The translations under genes and the position numbers were made by a program. Under the pieces are notes generated by a model. That model was not told where the DNA came from. It ran no database searches and saw nothing but the letters and a program-made list of their open reading frames with translations. Below are positions 22,901 through 27,889 of a DNA stretch of 64,000 nucleotides, piece after piece; position 1 is the first letter of the stretch; the number at the start of each line of letters is the position of its first letter. The stretch is from an uncultured Alphaproteobacteria bacterium (GTDB taxonomy: Bacteria; Pseudomonadota; Alphaproteobacteria; HIMB59; GCA-002718135): positions 1,059 through 65,058 of the forward strand of contig CABYXC010000008.1 of the NCBI GenBank assembly GCA_902522865.1. Direction: 5' to 3'.

Positions 22901-23323
22901 ATTAAAATCCCTGTTGAAATTTATATACCTGAAGATTTTATTAACGATGTTGATCTAAGACTTTCCATTTATAAAAGAATCTCAAATTTAAATAATAAAA
23001 AAGAAATTGAAGAGATTAAAATAGAATTAATCGATAGGTTTGGTAAATTACCTAAACAATTAATTAACCTTCTAAAATTAGTAGAAATTAAAATCATTTG
23101 TTTAAAAAATAACATTGAAAAGTTTGAATTTAGCAGAAGAGGCATATTAATTAGTTTTTTTCAAAATCAACCAAAAAATCCAGAAAAATTATTAGAACTT
23201 TCATTATCAAATAATAATTCTTTAATATTAAGACCTGATCAAAAAATTTTTTATGATTTTGGTGGTAATTTAATTAATGACAGGTTTGAATTATCTAAAA
23301 ATGTCATTAATTTAATTAAATAA
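19946..23323 (+). CDS. mfd: Transcription-repair coupling factor
   Basis: FSVRGSILDIF, CarD-like region, GDVAFGKT, DEEQ, C-terminal TRCF domain. Confidence 0.95.
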   Translation: MKNKNTIGPSIHNVEPFFISQFYQNSNKSILYIGKNEREISSMEEKIKWLLPDVEILLFKSWDQIPYDNVSPSKEVQIERLKTLKILSNSNAKRIILTTINSITQKIIPKSIINSQLLKISKKQKFKLEDLINNLVLLGFQRTSLVRDKSEFSVRGSILDIFPNDRSKPIRIDFFDEEIETIFEFDQITQKRLKEINSYLEFNIVNELILNEDNLNLFRKNFREIFPEYRNSQVYNLFSEKIIPSGGEQFIPLFYDNLETLFDYIEEYKILLNDEFNNIFENRLENINDFYLARKNNKESFFLSPEYFYLNKEIFKKYLENNEHFYFKTFDKNNYINIDVNIIHNLSSIKKEIDFSFINQFFTANSKDNIIYICCRSKGSLERVSKILENNLSLNLNDVKNFNHSFPDNILLTILDIEESFKFNKYIFINEKSLFGYFFNTQISKSRKQTIFFEELNKLSIDSILVHSEYGLCKFNNIRKIELNDSIHECLELEFFENQKLFLPVENLSYVSKYSDDTDGNIILDKLGASHWQKRKADAKKKIRDAAKKLISTASKRLQSQSYEINTNIPEYDKFVSTFPYVETDDQLNAIQDVINDFSKMIPSDRLIVGDVAFGKTEVILRAIFLAAKSNLQSVVLVPTTILSRQHFTNFKKRLSIFGINISEISRLVSLKEKKEIFEKCNAGNIDVLVGTHALLNDKLKFKKLGLIVYDEEQKLGTIQKEKFKEIAPKAHCISLSATPIPRTLSMSLSGIRDLSLILTAPFERMAVRTYVSPFDSLTITEAIKREIYGRKNGVYFVVPRKKDLPFVEQFLKDNLPEIKYVITHGQLSPKLLESRISKFYNQEVPLMLSTNIIENGLDLPHVNTIIVYRSNIFSLAALYQLKGRVGRSSKRGYAYITYKESELKDNGRKRLSIINSSDHLGAGFNIASQDLDLRGGGSVIGEEQSGFIKEIGTELYHQMLEEEINLQKSKINLDFIKKDIYQPIIKIPVEIYIPEDFINDVDLRLSIYKRISNLNNKKEIEEIKIELIDRFGKLPKQLINLLKLVEIKIICLKNNIEKFEFSRRGILISFFQNQPKNPEKLLELSLSNNNSLILRPDQKIFYDFGGNLINDRFELSKNVINLIK

Positions 23324-24417
23324 TGGTTAAAATTATAATTATATTTAATTTTTTTATTTTTTTATTTTTTAATAAAAATGTTTTATCTTTAGACAACAAA
23401 TATAAGCTTGAAATTTTAAAATCTAATTTAAGTTCCCCTTGGAGTTTAACATTTATAAGCAATAATCAGATTTTAATTAGTGAAAAAACTGGTAAAATCA
23501 AATTATTTGATATTTTAAGTAATAAAATTACTGAGATAGATCATAACTTAAATGTAATTAGAGATAAAAATTCGCAAGGTGGTCTTCTAGACATTTACTT
23601 TTATAATAATCAAGTTTTAATTTCTTACTCTGAAAAAATTGGTGATAAATTATTTAGTCCTTCAACAACATCTATTGCAAAAGCAGATTTAGATTTAAAT
23701 TTCTTACATTTTGAAAACATTTTTAGAGCTAATCCACCTATTAGATCACCATATCACTTTGGTTCGAGAATAGCTATTCATGATGATTATTTATACGCAT
23801 CTGTGGGTGAAAGAGGAAAAGGAATGATAGCTCAAGATGCTAATCAACATCCTGGAAGTATCATCCGAATTAAATTAGATGGAACTTCTCCTAAAGATAA
23901 TCCTCATTACATCTCAAAAGAAACATGGTTACCCGAAATATATCAAATCGGTGTGAGAAATCCTCAAGGAATGTCTATTTCTCCTTTTGATAATAAAATT
24001 TATATTAGTAATCACGGAGCAAAAGGTGGCGATTGGTTTGGTGAAGTTAAAAAGGGTGAAAATTATGGTTGGAAAATTTTAGGTTGGGGTGGAACTAATT
24101 ATGATAATTCCAAAATTGGTCCTAAATGGTTACCTGGTTTTACAAAAGCAATTCATTACTGGGTGCCATCAATTGCTATTAGTGCAATCACAATATATGA
24201 TGGAAATGAATTTCCAGAATTTATGGGATTAGCACTTATAACATCTTTAAAAGATCAATCTCTACGCTCACTAGATTTTTCAGATTTAGATAATGTGAAA
24301 GAACATATTATTTTTAAAAAAGATATAGGAAGAATAAGAGATATTAAAATTCATCCAGTGAGTGGTAAAATATTTTTGTTAGCACAAGATAAATTATGGT
24401 TATTTGAAAAAAAATAA
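23323..24417 (+). CDS. PQQ-dependent sugar dehydrogenase (YliI/Asd family)
   Basis: Signal peptide; PWSL, QGGLLD, HFGSRI, GVRNPQG, NYGW, RIRDI. Confidence 0.85.
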   Translation: MVKIIIIFNFFIFLFFNKNVLSLDNKYKLEILKSNLSSPWSLTFISNNQILISEKTGKIKLFDILSNKITEIDHNLNVIRDKNSQGGLLDIYFYNNQVLISYSEKIGDKLFSPSTTSIAKADLDLNFLHFENIFRANPPIRSPYHFGSRIAIHDDYLYASVGERGKGMIAQDANQHPGSIIRIKLDGTSPKDNPHYISKETWLPEIYQIGVRNPQGMSISPFDNKIYISNHGAKGGDWFGEVKKGENYGWKILGWGGTNYDNSKIGPKWLPGFTKAIHYWVPSIAISAITIYDGNEFPEFMGLALITSLKDQSLRSLDFSDLDNVKEHIIFKKDIGRIRDIKIHPVSGKIFLLAQDKLWLFEKK

Positions 24418-24463: not shown

Positions 24464-24580
24464 ATGTTTGAATTTTTAGCGTTTTTAGTTGGTGTTATGA
24501 TTATGGGACCAATAGTCTATATTTATTTTTTAGTTCAAGATTTAAAAAAAAGGATTGATAAGCTTGAAAATAAAAATTAA
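24464..24580 (+). CDS. 38-aa single-pass membrane protein, not in ORF track
   Basis: MFEFLAFLVGVMIMGPIVYIYFLVQDLKKRIDKLENKN; stop lies 6 nt before the sulfotransferase start. Confidence 0.55.
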   Translation: MFEFLAFLVGVMIMGPIVYIYFLVQDLKKRIDKLENKN

Positions 24581-24586
24581 TTTTTA

Positions 24587-25414
24587 ATGCATAAAAATAT
24601 TTTTTTGGCTTCTTATCCTAAATCTGGAAATACTTGGTTGAGGTCTATTATTGGAAATTTTTATAATTTTGATAAAGATTTTAGCCTGAATGATTTAAAA
24701 TTAATACCTTTACTATCAATTAAAAAACATTTTAGTGAATTTGAAAATAAAGTTTATACAAATAATCATGATTTAGATTTTGATTGGATTTCACAAAATA
24801 TTATTAAATGTCAAAAAATATTAAATAATAATGTAAATCATCTGAATATATTTAAAACTCATAGTGCAAGACATAAAAATTTTACAAATGAAACGGTAAA
24901 TGCAGGTTTTATTTATATTGTTAGAGATCCTAGAGACATAATAGTTTCTCTTAAAAATTTTTCAGGTAAAGAAATTGATAAAACTATTGATGAATTTCTT
25001 TTTTCAAAAAGTTTAATGATTACAACTAATGGAGCACAAGAATTACTTTCAACTTGGGAACTTAATGTTCAATCCTGGTTAAATTATAATAGTGTTCCTA
25101 GATTGATCATAAAGTATGAAGATTTAAAATTAAATCCAAAAGAAATTATATTAAATATTACAAAATTTCTTAATAAAACACACAGATTAAATATAAACTT
25201 AAGTGACCAAGACATTGACAAAATAATAGAAAATACAAATTTTACTAATTTAAGAAATTTAGAAGATAAAAATGGTTTTGATGAAGCTACAAAACATTCT
25301 AAATTTTTCAGATCAGGCACATCTAATCAATGGAAAGATATATTATCTAATTCACAGGCCAAGCTTATTGAAAAAAATCTAAAATCATTAATGAAGTATT
25401 TTAATTATATTTAA
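24587..25414 (+). CDS. PAPS-dependent sulfotransferase, copy 1
   Basis: 5'-PSB ASYPKSGNTW, KTH, 3'-PB IVRDPRD..VS, FFRSGTSNQW. Confidence 0.9.
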   Translation: MHKNIFLASYPKSGNTWLRSIIGNFYNFDKDFSLNDLKLIPLLSIKKHFSEFENKVYTNNHDLDFDWISQNIIKCQKILNNNVNHLNIFKTHSARHKNFTNETVNAGFIYIVRDPRDIIVSLKNFSGKEIDKTIDEFLFSKSLMITTNGAQELLSTWELNVQSWLNYNSVPRLIIKYEDLKLNPKEIILNITKFLNKTHRLNINLSDQDIDKIIENTNFTNLRNLEDKNGFDEATKHSKFFRSGTSNQWKDILSNSQAKLIEKNLKSLMKYFNYI

Positions 25415-25421
25415 ATGATAA

Positions 25422-25497
25422 TGGCGGAGAGAGTGATATTCGAACTCACGAACGAGTTGCCCCGTTGCCGGTTTTCAAGACCGGTGCTTTCAACCGC
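25422..25497 (-). pseudogene. 5'-truncated tRNA-Ser(UGA) (3' 76 nt), att-like fragment
   Basis: Matches the intact tRNA-Ser but lacks its first 14 nt; T-stem mismatch (GTGAG/ATCAC); anticodon stem CCGGT/ACCGG. Confidence 0.85.
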
Positions 25498-25529
25498 AAT
25501 AAATGTTAGATTTTGGGGAAATTTTAAGG

Positions 25530-25560
25530 TGTCATGTGAAAGTCATGTAATTACATGACA
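25530..25560. repeat. GTCATGT direct and inverted repeats, including a perfect 18-bp palindrome
   Basis: TGTCATGTGAAAGTCATGTAATTACATGACA; palindrome GTCATGTAATTACATGAC at 25542-25559. Confidence 0.8.
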
Positions 25561-25564
25561 TTTG

Positions 25565-25654
25565 TGGCGGAGAGTGTGAGATTCGAACTCTCGATAGACT
25601 TGCATCTATGACGGTTTTCAAGACCGTTGCATTCAACCGCTCAGCCATCTCTAC
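25565..25654 (-). tRNA. Divergent full-length tRNA-Ser(UGA), probably a pseudo-tRNA
   Basis: 90 nt ending GCCA; anticodon arm ACGGT-CTTGAAA-ACCGT; different variable arm; mismatches at pairs 2:71, 7:66 and 50:64. Confidence 0.75.
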
Positions 25655-25674
25655 AGGGGACATGCTGGGAACAC

Positions 25675-25703
25675 TTTATATATAAAATGACACAACGCAT
25701 CAA
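25675..25703 (-). promoter_or_regulatory. Putative sigma70 promoter of the divergent tRNA-Ser copy
   Basis: Minus-strand TTGATG-N17-TATAAA, 20 nt upstream of the tRNA 5' end. Confidence 0.45.
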
Positions 25704-25834
25704 TTTTATAAAAAAATTATACCTAATTTTGTTACCAGATATAAACTTTTAAAAATACTAATTAAATTTATTAAAAAAAATAAATATTTAAATTTGTAAT
25801 ATTAAATTAAAATTATTTTTCTAAATATTTTTTA

Positions 25835-26662
25835 GTGTTTAAAAATATTTTTTTGGCTTCATATCCTAAATCTGGAAATACTTGGCTTAGATCAATAATT
25901 CTTTCCTCATTACAGCAAAACAATATTATCAATATAAAAGATTTATCAAAAATAAGATTGTTATCAGATAAAATGAACTTCACTTCATTTAAAAATAAGA
26001 TTTATGATAAAAAAGGATTGATTGATTATGATTGGATGTCAAAAAACCTTATTTTATGTCAGAAAAAACTTAATGAAAAAACTAAATATAATTTTTTTTT
26101 TAAAACTCATAGTGTGAGGCACAAAAGTTTTACAAATAAAACTGTAAATGCAGGTTTTATTTATATTGTCCGAGATCCTAGAGATATAGTTGTATCATTA
26201 AGTAATTTTACAGGAATAAATTTGGATGAAGCTATAAATCAAATTGTTTTTAATAAACAACTAATGACGAATGCAAATGGTGCTAGAGAATTGGTTTCCA
26301 ATTGGGATTTAAATATTAAATCTTGGTTAGAATACAAAAATGTCCCAAGTTTATTTATTAGATATGAAGACCTATTATTTAAATCAAATAACACAATATT
26401 AAAAATTATTGCTTTTATAAATTTAATTACGAATAAAAATATTTTAAATAATAAAAAAAATATTGATGAAATTGCAAAAAATACCAACTTCAAAACATTA
26501 CAATTTCAAGAAGCCTTAAATGGTTTTGATGAAGCATCGAAGCATTCAAAATTTTTCAGATCTGGGACATCTAATCAATGGAAAGATGTACTAACTAATA
26601 AACAGATTAATCTTATCGAGAAAAACTTAAAATCAATGATGACGTACTTTAATTATATTTAG
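25835..26662 (+). CDS. PAPS-dependent sulfotransferase, copy 2
   Basis: Same motifs and same length (275 aa) as copy 1; GTG start. Confidence 0.9.
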   Translation: MFKNIFLASYPKSGNTWLRSIILSSLQQNNIINIKDLSKIRLLSDKMNFTSFKNKIYDKKGLIDYDWMSKNLILCQKKLNEKTKYNFFFKTHSVRHKSFTNKTVNAGFIYIVRDPRDIVVSLSNFTGINLDEAINQIVFNKQLMTNANGARELVSNWDLNIKSWLEYKNVPSLFIRYEDLLFKSNNTILKIIAFINLITNKNILNNKKNIDEIAKNTNFKTLQFQEALNGFDEASKHSKFFRSGTSNQWKDVLTNKQINLIEKNLKSMMTYFNYI

Positions 26663-26669
26663 AATATAA

Positions 26670-26759
26670 TGGCGGAGAGAGTGAGATTCGAACTCACGAA
26701 CGAGTTGCCCCGTTGCTGGTTTTCAAGACCAGTGCTTTCAACCGCTCAGCCATCTCTCC
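26670..26759 (-). tRNA. tRNA-Ser(UGA), intact
   Basis: GGAGAGATGGCTGAGCGGTTGAAAGCACTGGTCTTGAAAACCAG...GTGAGTTCGAATCTCACTCTCTCCGCCA; acceptor, anticodon and T stems fully paired; long variable arm. Confidence 0.97.
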
Positions 26760-26851: not shown

Positions 26852-27889
26852 ATGATTATTAGGCTCGTAATATTCTTAATTTTTATTTCTTTCAAATCCT
26901 ATGCAGTTGAATGTGAAAAACCAAAAATGCCAACTGATGAAGAATGGAACATCTGGCTGACAAATATAAAACAAGAAGCACTCGAAAGAGGTATAAGTCA
27001 AAAAACTATTTCAAATAATTTAAACGATGTTAAGCCACAAAGTAAAATTATTATGCGTGATAGATGCCAGCCAGCATCAACAATGACTCTAGATGAATAC
27101 TTATTTTATACAATTACTAAAGATAAAGTATTTGCCGGAAAAAATTTTTTAAAAAAACATAAAGATTTATTAAAAGAAATTGGTGATTATTTTAAAATAC
27201 AACCAAGATTTATAGTATCTGTCTTAGGTATGGAAAGTTATTATGGAAGAAATCAAGGAAAAATAAATTCCATAATTGCGATAACAACTCTTGCATTTGA
27301 TAGAAGAAGAAGTGATTTTTATAAAAAACAATTATTTGCAGCTCTTGAAATATTAGATAAAAATCTTGTTCCAAATGGAGAACTGAAAGGTAGTTGGGGT
27401 GGGGCAGTTGGTATGACTCAAATGATTCCTACAACTTTTTTAGAAACTGCATACGATTGGGATGGCAATGGTATTGATATATGGAATAGTTATGCAGATG
27501 CTTTTGCTAGTACTGCAAACTATTTAACTTCATTAGATAAAAATCCATGGTCGTATGATAGTACTTGGGGAAGAGAGGTACTTCCGCCAAAAAATATTTC
27601 TTTATCTTTTTTTGATTCTATAAAACAAGTTAATCCAAAAGGTTGTGGCGCAGTTAAACGTAGATCAATTTCAAAAACTCTATCCGAATGGTCTAAATTA
27701 GGATTTACAAAAATAAATGGAGATCCTTTACCTATAAGGGATGATTTAGAGGCTAGATTAATAATGCCAGATGGGATAGATGGAAGAATGTTCATAGTAT
27801 ATCCTAATTATAAAAATATTCTTTATTACAATTGTTCATCATATTATGCTGTATCAGTAGGTCTCCTAAGTGATAAAATATCTAATTAG
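26852..27889 (+). CDS. Lytic murein transglycosylase (MltB/SLT_2 family)
   Basis: GMESYYG, GSWGGAVGMTQMIPTT, YNCSSYYA; signal peptide. Confidence 0.88.
   Translation: MIIRLVIFLIFISFKSYAVECEKPKMPTDEEWNIWLTNIKQEALERGISQKTISNNLNDVKPQSKIIMRDRCQPASTMTLDEYLFYTITKDKVFAGKNFLKKHKDLLKEIGDYFKIQPRFIVSVLGMESYYGRNQGKINSIIAITTLAFDRRRSDFYKKQLFAALEILDKNLVPNGELKGSWGGAVGMTQMIPTTFLETAYDWDGNGIDIWNSYADAFASTANYLTSLDKNPWSYDSTWGREVLPPKNISLSFFDSIKQVNPKGCGAVKRRSISKTLSEWSKLGFTKINGDPLPIRDDLEARLIMPDGIDGRMFIVYPNYKNILYYNCSSYYAVSVGLLSDKISN

Follow-up and report, generated by a model that had tools for sequence, protein, structure and literature searches.

A probable phage scar and a sulfotransferase cassette side by side at tRNA-Ser(UGA) in an uncultured SAR11-like alphaproteobacterium

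Published descriptions portray SAR11 genomes as almost devoid of mobile elements, and the portions of three reports cited here leave open by which route single-gene variants ("metaparalogs") enter them (10.64898/2026.04.03.716430, 10.64898/2026.10.07.757358, PMC11796062). In a Mediterranean SAR11 population, Molina-Pardines et al. (2025, Microbiome, PMC11796062) describe tRNA-bounded islands, read a partial repeat of the boundary tRNA inside an island as the mark of gene-cassette insertion, and report integrases as almost absent, with one in that population. The preprint "Pelagibacter, resolved" (bioRxiv 10.64898/2026.04.03.716430) proposes tRNA-anchored boundaries for the main hypervariable region, and an Arctic SAR11 preprint from 2026 (10.64898/2026.10.07.757358), in the part cited, reports no link between variable regions and tRNAs and does not settle the mechanism. 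In other streamlined plankton, additive islands whose tRNA ends recur are known, as are tycheposons (PMC10872708). Temperate pelagiphages of the HTVC019P type, as described by Zhao et al. (bioRxiv 10.1101/410191), carry a tyrosine integrase gene next to the phage attachment site (attP), share a short core of 11–46 bp with the middle of a host tRNA gene, and split that gene upon integration, with a phage tRNA of the same kind proposed to take over; the targets given there are tRNA-Cys, two tRNA-Leu, and tRNA-Arg. Here we compare with these systems a locus from an uncultured alphaproteobacterium, located in a stretch of 64,000 nt ("the window"; contig CABYXC010000008.1 of assembly GCA_902522865.1, positions 1,059 to 65,058), in which two sulfotransferase genes, ST1 and ST2, alternate with intact and damaged copies of tRNA-Ser(UGA).

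We consider it probable that this locus is a composite built by two unrelated kinds of tRNA-directed recombination, one of which left the scar of a temperate phage and the other a cassette carrying ST2. Between the flank genes GSDH and SLT, the order is a 38-aa open reading frame (ORF), ST1, a 76-nt piece of tRNA-Ser, a 67-nt spacer, a middle tRNA-Ser, a paired GGGAC repeat, an AT-rich spacer, ST2, and an intact tRNA-Ser(UGA). ARAGORN calls a tRNA-Ser(tga) at 25565–25654 (−) and another at 26670–26759 (−). ST1 (24587–25414, +) and ST2 (25835–26662, +) both belong to PF00685, and a gap of 7 nt separates each stop codon from a tRNA 3′ end. With a repeat period of 1248 nt, the window holds ∼1.2 kb of extra DNA relative to relatives with a single unit. 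The 76-nt piece (25422–25497, −) corresponds to positions 15–90 of the tRNA and, by BLAST and alignment, is 96.05% identical to the intact gene; its three differences are a compensatory CCGG/CTGG pair and one T-stem base. A 76-nt repeat at 96% identity is far beyond chance. All features listed in a first-pass annotation of this DNA were recovered by ARAGORN, BLAST, Pfam, and alignment at their coordinates, including the equal 7-nt gap in both units; what the features represent turned out to differ from that account in several respects.

The first-pass annotation had taken the 76-nt piece as the far end of an island carrying ST2 and had proposed a search for an attP that matches it. Such an attP was found in two IMG/VR viral contigs, L136 and L137 (L-numbers denote individual DNA stretches or contigs, and G-numbers the genomes of relatives), through a 29-nt string of the 67-nt spacer. 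The match extends over 171 nt (25482–25652; 93.0% identity to L136 and 94.2% to L137) and takes in the last 15 nt of the fragment, the whole spacer, and most of the middle tRNA. Both viral contigs have the same order, namely an integrase gene, an arm with three GTCATGTAA repeats, a 15-nt core, a 67-nt arm, and a tRNA-Ser(tga) called by ARAGORN. The core is identical in both to positions 15–29 of the host tRNA-Ser (25483–25497 in the window), and the spacer (25498–25564), with its GTCATGT repeats, corresponds to the 67-nt attP arm. The integrase ORF encodes 384 aa and matches PF00589 (56.8 and 57.6 bits) and phrog_1; L136 also encodes a tail fibre (phrog_4492) and a lysozyme (PF00959). When folded, the phage-encoded tRNA-Ser(UGA) forms a normal cloverleaf. 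In the chromosome, the phage-like DNA at 25482–25652 runs straight into the 3′ part of the host tRNA to give a host–core–phage arm junction. The order expected of an integration product, in which host positions 30–90 and the shared core (15–29) are followed by the phage arm and the phage tRNA, is the order of the window. These matches show the stretch 25482–25652 to be of phage origin, and what had been read as an island end is the core, arm, and tRNA of a temperate-phage attP. An 18-nt perfect palindrome, GTCATGTAATTACATGAC, lies within this arm at 25535–25552 and is kept in both phage contigs; it may be a site for the integrase or an accessory protein.

The rest of such a phage was not seen. 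Neither a second phage junction nor a prophage body was found, so the locus holds a remnant rather than a prophage. In the source assembly (1.41 Mb, 29% G+C, 35 contigs, 73% complete, with SAR11-like traits), neither further phage DNA nor a relative of the phage integrase was found. That integrase was found in none of 116 family genomes, among which no match covering the 67-nt spacer was reported either. A search of cultured phage genomes with the tRNA turned up nothing but generic phage tRNA-Ser genes (≤83%), and no attP.

The middle tRNA-Ser (25565–25654, −) had been counted as a third tRNA-Ser. It is present, but it is unsound as a gene: Rfam gives it 29.9 bits (gathering threshold 29), four of its pairs are non-standard, and no acceptor stem forms in its minimum-energy fold (−21.7 kcal/mol, z −0.21), whereas the intact tRNA scores 62.6 bits and folds into a clean cloverleaf (−30.6). 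When aligned with the two phage tRNAs and the host alleles, its positions 1–16 (25639–25654) are of host type at all three diagnostic positions, with one private change, and positions 24–90 (25565–25631) are of phage type, including the variable arm, the 3′ acceptor strand, and the 3′ flank. The switch falls within the shared GGTTGAA (positions 17–23), which is part of the core. By this alignment, the middle tRNA is a hybrid pseudo-tRNA, and the union of a host 5′ end with a phage 3′ part accounts for the mismatches of its acceptor stem. Beyond the host-type 5′ end lies the motif of the ST2 cassette described below and not the SLT flank.

Several features of the HTVC019P-type pelagiphages recur here: the integrase gene adjoins attP, the core (15 nt) is short and lies within the tRNA, and the host tRNA is split while a phage tRNA of the same kind could take its place (10.1101/410191). 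In contrast to the targets described in that account, the target here is tRNA-Ser(UGA), a single junction is left, the prophage is gone, and the phage tRNA is now a host/phage hybrid. The two viral contigs show weak, patchy DNA similarity to cultured phages, mostly Pelagibacter phages (27 of 36 records) and covering at most 6% of 8 kb. On the evidence of this one junction, tRNA-Ser(UGA) would join the phage integration targets of the group, and the hybrid tRNA would be what remains after such a prophage is lost. We found neither a tRNA-Ser-integrating phage nor a sulfotransferase/tRNA-Ser cassette described for SAR11 in the literature searched, the supplements of which may hold such data.

The second component of the locus is the ST2 unit, which we could trace to another tRNA. 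Genes of the ST2 type (≥85% identity) occur in 12 of 105 genus genomes, the window's included, and nine of the 11 other carriers (G095, G113, G110, G077, G069, G076, G016, G034, and G003) have theirs in a tRNA-Gly(GCC) array beside blh and carotenoid genes. The copies of the remaining two, G111 and G070, were located only as far as not being near SLT. The window genome alone holds ST2 at tRNA-Ser, both against these two copies and against 64 other tRNA-Ser loci. The first-pass annotation had suggested that sulfotransferase alleles accumulate at tRNA-Ser; ST2 is instead an old cassette that sits at tRNA-Gly in nine of the 11 other carriers.

In the arrays of these nine genomes, an intact tRNA-Gly(GCC) stands at one end, and the cassettes are parted by 51-nt copies of the tRNA-Gly 3′ end that are 96–100% identical; the window's own tRNA-Ser site has one partial tRNA copy only. 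An ST2 cassette in an array begins with the tRNA-Gly repeat and continues with 35–80 nt, a paired GGGAC-type repeat, an AT-rich spacer, ST2, 7 nt, a tRNA-Ser copy, a second paired repeat, 70–100 nt, and the next tRNA-Gly repeat. The tRNA-Ser copy comprises positions 4–90 and is 94–98% identical in six close relatives and heavily decayed in G003, G034, and G016. In six arrays, the cassette has different ranks and neighbours. The window repeats this anatomy from the paired GGGAC-type direct repeat (25656–25674, +; ∼11-nt spacing), which forms the left edge of the cassette, through the AT-rich spacer (25675–25834, +), presumably the promoter region, to ST2 and the tRNA. The spacer is ∼98% co-linear with the cassettes of G113, G110, G095, and the metagenome contig L101, in which tRNA-Gly repeats precede a stretch of 690 nt at 98.8% identity. 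Over 25671–26756, the window differs from G113 at 24 of ∼1086 aligned sites, about the divergence of the flank genes. The GGGAC motif beside ST2 is the best match to the motif in its own genome (one substitution) and the only one there that adjoins a sulfotransferase gene; paired GGGAC motifs recur beside sulfotransferase cassettes in G003, G034, G016, G015, G022, G110, G097, and L101. Taken together, the shared anatomy identifies the window's ST2 unit as a tRNA-Gly-array cassette of ∼1.1 kb that lacks an integrase gene.

The same kind of cassette is found with other cargo and at other tRNAs. Metagenome contigs carry the ST2 cassette at tRNA-Gly (L099, L101, L102, and L104) or directly behind an intact tRNA-Gln(UUG) (L098 and L100), and ST1-like genes (∼76% identical to ST1) also occur as such cassettes (G003, G097, G015/G022, and L104). 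Both enzymes are present in G110, G095, G113, and G111, with ST1 at tRNA-Ser and the ST2-type gene elsewhere (confirmed in the tRNA-Gly array for the first three, on another contig in G111). The window thus differs from these relatives in the location of ST2, not in its possession. An array cassette with a different cargo, a secreted protein of ∼370 aa (L124, 4745–6180, in G125; L119 in G076), ends with a tRNA-Ser piece (positions 2–58) and a paired GGGAC repeat, so that the tRNA-Ser relic looks like part of the cassette backbone rather than a sulfotransferase-specific feature.

To place the window among its relatives, we used SLT (26852–27889, +; a lytic transglycosylase of the SLT_2 family, PF13406, 266.4 bits), the conserved right flank, as the survey anchor. 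SLT was located in 81 of 105 genus genomes, our own included, and the 64 loci examined comprise the DNA upstream of SLT from 60 of the 80 other genomes plus four earlier loci; 16 low-ranked or incomplete rows were left out. The conserved left flank is GSDH (23323–24417, +; a glucose/sorbosone dehydrogenase, PF07995, 247.9 bits), which adjoins tRNA-Ser in most relatives. Among the 60 loci, 23 are empty (GSDH, ≤260 bp, tRNA, and SLT), 11 have the order GSDH-ST1-tRNA-SLT (15 of 64 when the four earlier loci are added), nine have mfd-tRNA-SLT without GSDH, and seven have other DNA between GSDH and the tRNA, one of these with a tRNA fragment. Two more hold islands with the GSDH side out of reach, and eight have no full tRNA within 400 bp of SLT; of the eight, three are contig ends and the rest are rearranged or carry 5′ fragments (G009, G126, G103, G128, and G081). 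ST1 is by this count an optional resident of the site. None of the 64 loci has two sulfotransferases, so the stack of units that the first-pass annotation envisaged was not seen elsewhere. Its view of tRNA-Ser(UGA) as a recombination hotspot in the genus was borne out by the survey, as was its view of the extra ∼1.25 kb as an insertion: the close relatives G010, G110, G125, and G111, among others, have GSDH-ST1-tRNA-SLT alone, and because the flanks of the closest are 96–98% identical to the window, the extra 1248 nt are an insertion in the window lineage.

The two tRNA alleles had been read the wrong way round. When 52 SLT-proximal tRNA-Ser genes were typed by their anticodon stem, 46 were CCGG/CCGG and six CTGG/CCAG. 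The truncated copy, with its CCGG stem and one private change, is the native allele because its type is the one held by 46 of the 52; the intact tRNA (26670–26759, −; ARAGORN and Rfam), the sole intact copy found in the assembly, has the rarer CTGG allele, which is shared at 100% with G068, G031, and G127. Four of the six CTGG carriers (G068, G031, G120, and G076) have islands at tRNA-Ser. G068 and G031 have kept a native-allele fragment (positions 16–90) and have in common an arm sequence with paired GTCGTGTAGAT repeats; a 22-nt arm string common to their islands matched no viral contig. In G068, G031, and G126, tRNA-Ser fragments end within 3 nt of the same position, beside islands without an integrase. 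No integrase was found in the tRNA-Ser islands of G068, G126, G031, G120, G076, G128, and G103 (28 ORFs against Pfam, 21 against PHROGs), and the only matches were to LexA_DNA_bind, MORN, GDSL, carbamoyltransferase, hydrolase, and GYD.

These islands lend some appeal to another account, close to that of the first-pass annotation, in which an integrase acting in trans inserted a single 1.25-kb integrase-less island (the middle tRNA and ST2) into the 3′ part of tRNA-Ser, with the 76-nt fragment as the far end and alleles accumulating at the site. The 76-nt direct repeat with its allele differences, the nearly coincident fragment ends in G068, G031, and G126, and the tie of the CTGG allele to such islands would all suit it. 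We nevertheless regard a single island as unlikely, since the DNA beside the fragment is a phage attP arm and phage tRNA unrelated to ST2, the ST2 protein has no relative in viral contigs and both phage contigs are without a sulfotransferase, co-linearity of the ST2 part with tRNA-Gly-array cassettes extends as far as the hybrid tRNA, and two sulfotransferases were met at none of the 64 other loci. The earlier reading is thus partly supported; it was right in spirit, in invoking tRNA-directed recombination and a foreign ST2, and wrong in anatomy.

Both sulfotransferases are 275 aa long and align without gaps, with 159 of 275 residues (58%) identical. ST1 matches the PF00685 (Sulfotransfer_1) profile with 108.5 bits and ST2 with 89.4 bits (cut-off 22), over profile positions 3–252 of 255. 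The motifs PKSGNTW and RDPRD are the same in both proteins, in line with the earlier claim that the binding motifs for 3′-phosphoadenosine-5′-phosphosulfate (PAPS) are conserved; we take them to be the phosphosulfate-binding loop and the 3′-phosphate-binding motif. Among solved structures, the closest chains are cytosolic sulfotransferases of plants and animals, Teg12/14, and StaL, a likeness that hints at an acceptor of small-molecule or glycopeptide-like kind and less at a polysaccharide. Where the two enzymes would obtain PAPS is not evident in the 73%-complete assembly, in which no convincing adenylylsulfate (APS) kinase was found; the only APS-kinase-like match is a 137-aa ORF (C3:70293–70541, L135) with 29 bits against cut-offs of 127–139.

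A tree of 36 rows separates the two genes. The 16 ST1 genes at tRNA-Ser sites form a single clade (support 95/95), and ST2 belongs to another (100/100), in which the window copy nests with the array copies of G113 and G095 (99/98). ST1 is 98% identical to the G010 copy, and ST2 is 96–98% identical to the tRNA-Gly-array copies of six relatives. The tree comparison proposed in the first-pass annotation accordingly gave two genes that are not within-genome sisters, each of which groups with the copies of other genomes. An in-place tandem duplication of the sulfotransferase–tRNA-Ser unit followed by divergence, which the equal unit length, the same 7-nt gap, and the conserved termini might have suggested, is scarcely credible in the light of these clades, of window copies each 98% identical to a gene in another genome, and of relatives that hold one unit only between flanks 97–98% identical to the window's. 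The window ST2 carries ∼20 private substitutions, and these are not copied from its neighbour: only 3 of 28 window-private sites agree with ST1, on which ground gene conversion of ST2 by ST1 was rejected.

The unusual joint between the phage-derived DNA and the cassette could also have been created by an assembler that misjoined two strains or two loci sharing the 87–90-nt tRNA-Ser repeat. The genome is fragmentary, contigs of G113, G012, and G078 end at the tRNA-Ser locus, and the second tRNA-Ser copy in the tRNA-Gly arrays of relatives could mislead assemblers. A simple repeat chimera, however, would join tRNA-Gly-array flanks to SLT and would not make a hybrid tRNA fused to the cassette motif, and the genome's own tRNA-Gly array is assembled separately and holds no ST2. 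Moreover, Logan contigs from three studies span the spacer, hybrid tRNA, motif, and DNA upstream of ST2 with one to five differences (X1, 25513–25683, one differing letter; X2, 25572–25785, two; X3, 25612–25738, five), so the joint is also present in sea-water DNA beyond this assembly, although X1 could be the source sample itself. Among the Logan pieces listed, with 778 more beyond them, none crosses 25497/25498 or the passage from ST2 through the tRNA to SLT, and the tRNA stretches are swamped by tRNAs of other organisms, so that this speaks neither for nor against the joint. We consider an artefact very improbable.

For the composite origin, we can suggest a history. The ST2 cassette circulates, it would seem, in tRNA-Gly(GCC) arrays and, in metagenomes, at tRNA-Gln(UUG), and it most likely entered the tRNA-Ser site by homologous (Campbell-type) recombination between its own tRNA-Ser copy and the chromosomal gene. 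The left boundary of the window's ST2 unit coincides with the start of the paired repeat, which is joined to the 5′ end of a host-type tRNA-Ser, and the unit finishes with a full tRNA-Ser, as expected if a circle of motif, spacer, ST2, and tRNA-Ser had recombined through its own tRNA-Ser copy. Entry of the circle would have yielded two tRNA-Ser genes, the left of which a temperate pelagiphage-like virus may then have entered at the 15-nt core, in the D-arm/anticodon-stem region. That integration would have severed the native 3′ 76 nt, now the fragment, and brought the arm and tRNA of the phage next to it. Later recombination at the core-like GGTTGAA, between the tRNA of the phage and the 5′ end of a host-type tRNA, would have removed the body of the prophage and left the mispaired hybrid pseudo-tRNA, with the cassette's tRNA-Ser copy now the only intact tRNA-Ser(UGA). 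The reverse order of events is possible but would need recombination over only ∼20 nt.

Several observations weigh against this composite reading. The genome is in 35 contigs and 73% complete. The phage is known from two contigs with the scar sequence, its host is unproven, and, as neither a second junction nor a prophage body was seen, its integration at tRNA-Ser rests on one junction. On the side of the cassette, no circular form was seen, and the window's ST2 unit is without the bounding tRNA-Gly repeats found elsewhere, so that an extra deletion or motif-to-motif recombination must be assumed. Finally, near-intact tRNA-Ser copies in cassettes are CCGG in seven of seven relatives and contigs, whereas the window's intact tRNA is CTGG, an allele tied in relatives to a different tRNA-Ser island family (four of six carriers). 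This mismatch means that the true donor is unsampled or that a third event took place at the tRNA.

A more speculative thought is that the near-complete tRNA-Ser of these cassettes serves as both a portable landing pad and a spare part, which would tie their retention to phage attack as well as to the enzyme. We think this rather doubtful. If it were true, an integrase-less cassette would hop among tRNA-Gly, tRNA-Gln, and tRNA-Ser by recombining with the chromosomal tRNA-Ser; once at tRNA-Ser, it would provide a functional copy of the sole (and presumably essential) tRNA-Ser(UGA) found in the assembly, and the spare copy would make both disruption by a phage and faulty loss of the prophage survivable.

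The first-pass annotation had described the locus as being without an integrase. None is encoded at the locus itself, but elsewhere the genome has a tyrosine integrase gene beside tRNA-Gly(GCC), one of its two PF00589 genes, neither of which reaches the Xer cut-offs. That gene (C1:38084–39127) directly follows the tRNA and lies beside blh. At a distance of 5 kb stands a perfect 51-nt tRNA-Gly repeat, and both arms contain paired direct repeats of their own (CCGACA-, CTGTGGT-, and ACGCTCC-type). The whole forms an element of ∼5 kb (C1:34182–39235, L096) with tRNA-Gly(GCC), the 348-aa integrase, six small secreted or hypothetical ORFs, and the perfect repeat, and from its sequence it looks recently integrated. 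Set against the arrays of six relatives, the genome's own tRNA-Gly array shows no trace of a vacated ST2 slot; they share the 51-nt repeats, ∼14 nt of arm, and only distant similarity (72–80%) further out. Of 105 genomes, 31 have a homologue of the C1 integrase, in several cases interrupted by stops or reduced to an N-terminal stump. G003 and G097 each combine an integrase and a sulfotransferase cassette in a single array; most arrays examined have no integrase, and other relatives have integrases at tRNA-Gln, tRNA-Val, and tmRNA. Such integrases may plausibly move the array cassettes in trans, with the paired repeats as their arm-type binding sites. In L125–L128 (G105, G097, G112, and G018), integrases ∼33% identical to the genome's own one directly follow a "pseudo-tRNA-Gly", the 3′ 47–51 nt of which equal tRNA-Gly(GCC) while its 5′ half is unrelated (Rfam 31–35 bits). 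Paired GTGACA repeats lie between it and the integrase, and it looks like an element-borne att copy.

The cassettes can now be set beside the described systems. With the SAR11 islands of the Mediterranean population they share the partial boundary-tRNA repeat and the scarcity of integrases; the text of that report gives no cassette anatomy, whereas here one cassette is traced over three tRNA sites (tRNA-Gly, tRNA-Gln, and tRNA-Ser), with a passenger tRNA-Ser copy and conserved paired-repeat arms (PMC11796062). Methylophilaceae fGI-2 (20-bp tRNA-Lys ends) and the tycheposons of Prochlorococcus, likened here by description only, show the same tandem addition of cassettes at one tRNA, the same delimitation by a tRNA 3′-end repeat, and a tyrosine recombinase at or near the tRNA, but the cassettes here are single-gene, 1.1–1.4 kb long, and mostly without a recombinase (PMC10872708). 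By analogy, the arrays also resemble those of integrons, with tandem, promoter-proximal single-gene cassettes and a tyrosine recombinase encoded once or elsewhere. Unlike in integrons, the boundaries are 51-nt fragments of the tRNA-Gly 3′ end and not attC hairpins; against integron integrases, the phage integrase scores 27.2 bits (cut-off 265), and no match is listed for the C1 integrase.

What is new here is a variant of already known tRNA-anchored island biology and of moderate interest. Its value lies in a concrete anatomy, drawn from the locus and its relatives, of 1.1–1.4-kb single-gene cassettes bounded by tRNA 3′ repeats, with paired direct repeats in both arms and integrases encoded only here and there. 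The locus shows how streamlined marine genomes regarded as mobile-element-free still shuffle genes between tRNA sites. Strain-variable presence of two 58%-identical sulfotransferases of predicted small-molecule type would vary a sulfation reaction.

Some further observations concern the surroundings of the tRNA-Ser site. By translation, the 38-aa ORF (24464–24580, +) would encode a hydrophobic peptide; it lies in the native GSDH–tRNA spacer, the ST1 start is 6 nt past its stop, and it is also readable in the empty-site genome G103. GSDH falls into two allele classes, ∼90–93% and ∼73–76% identical to the window protein, that are distributed without regard to ST1, a sign that homologous replacement is probably frequent around the hotspot. 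Contigs of G113, G012, and G078 (L037, L070, and L082), among others, end ∼50–210 bp from the SLT start, consistent with strain-level variation that breaks assemblies at this locus. Other tRNA-Ser scars are found in L079 (G126), L085 (G128), and L057/L007 (G009); among these, 42-nt 5′ fragments (positions 1–42) adjoin SLT or sit 4 kb off. In G009, 83 kb of a single contig separate the ST1-tRNA unit from SLT, which points to a rearrangement that broke at the tRNA. Distant sulfotransferase paralogues, 33–41% identical to ST1, occur as tandem pairs elsewhere in genus genomes (L017/L030, G020:C24; L018, G036:C5; L016, G011:C14). One family of tRNA-Ser islands is recognizable by a conserved ORF of 84 aa, assigned to no known family, next to the 3′ end of tRNA-Ser (L041, L063, and L064, in G076, G120, and G031), which is joined in G076 by a 77-aa LexA-type DNA-binding protein (PF01726, phrog_3502); the islands of this family also hold secreted proteins of 550 and 110 aa and MORN-like repeat proteins.

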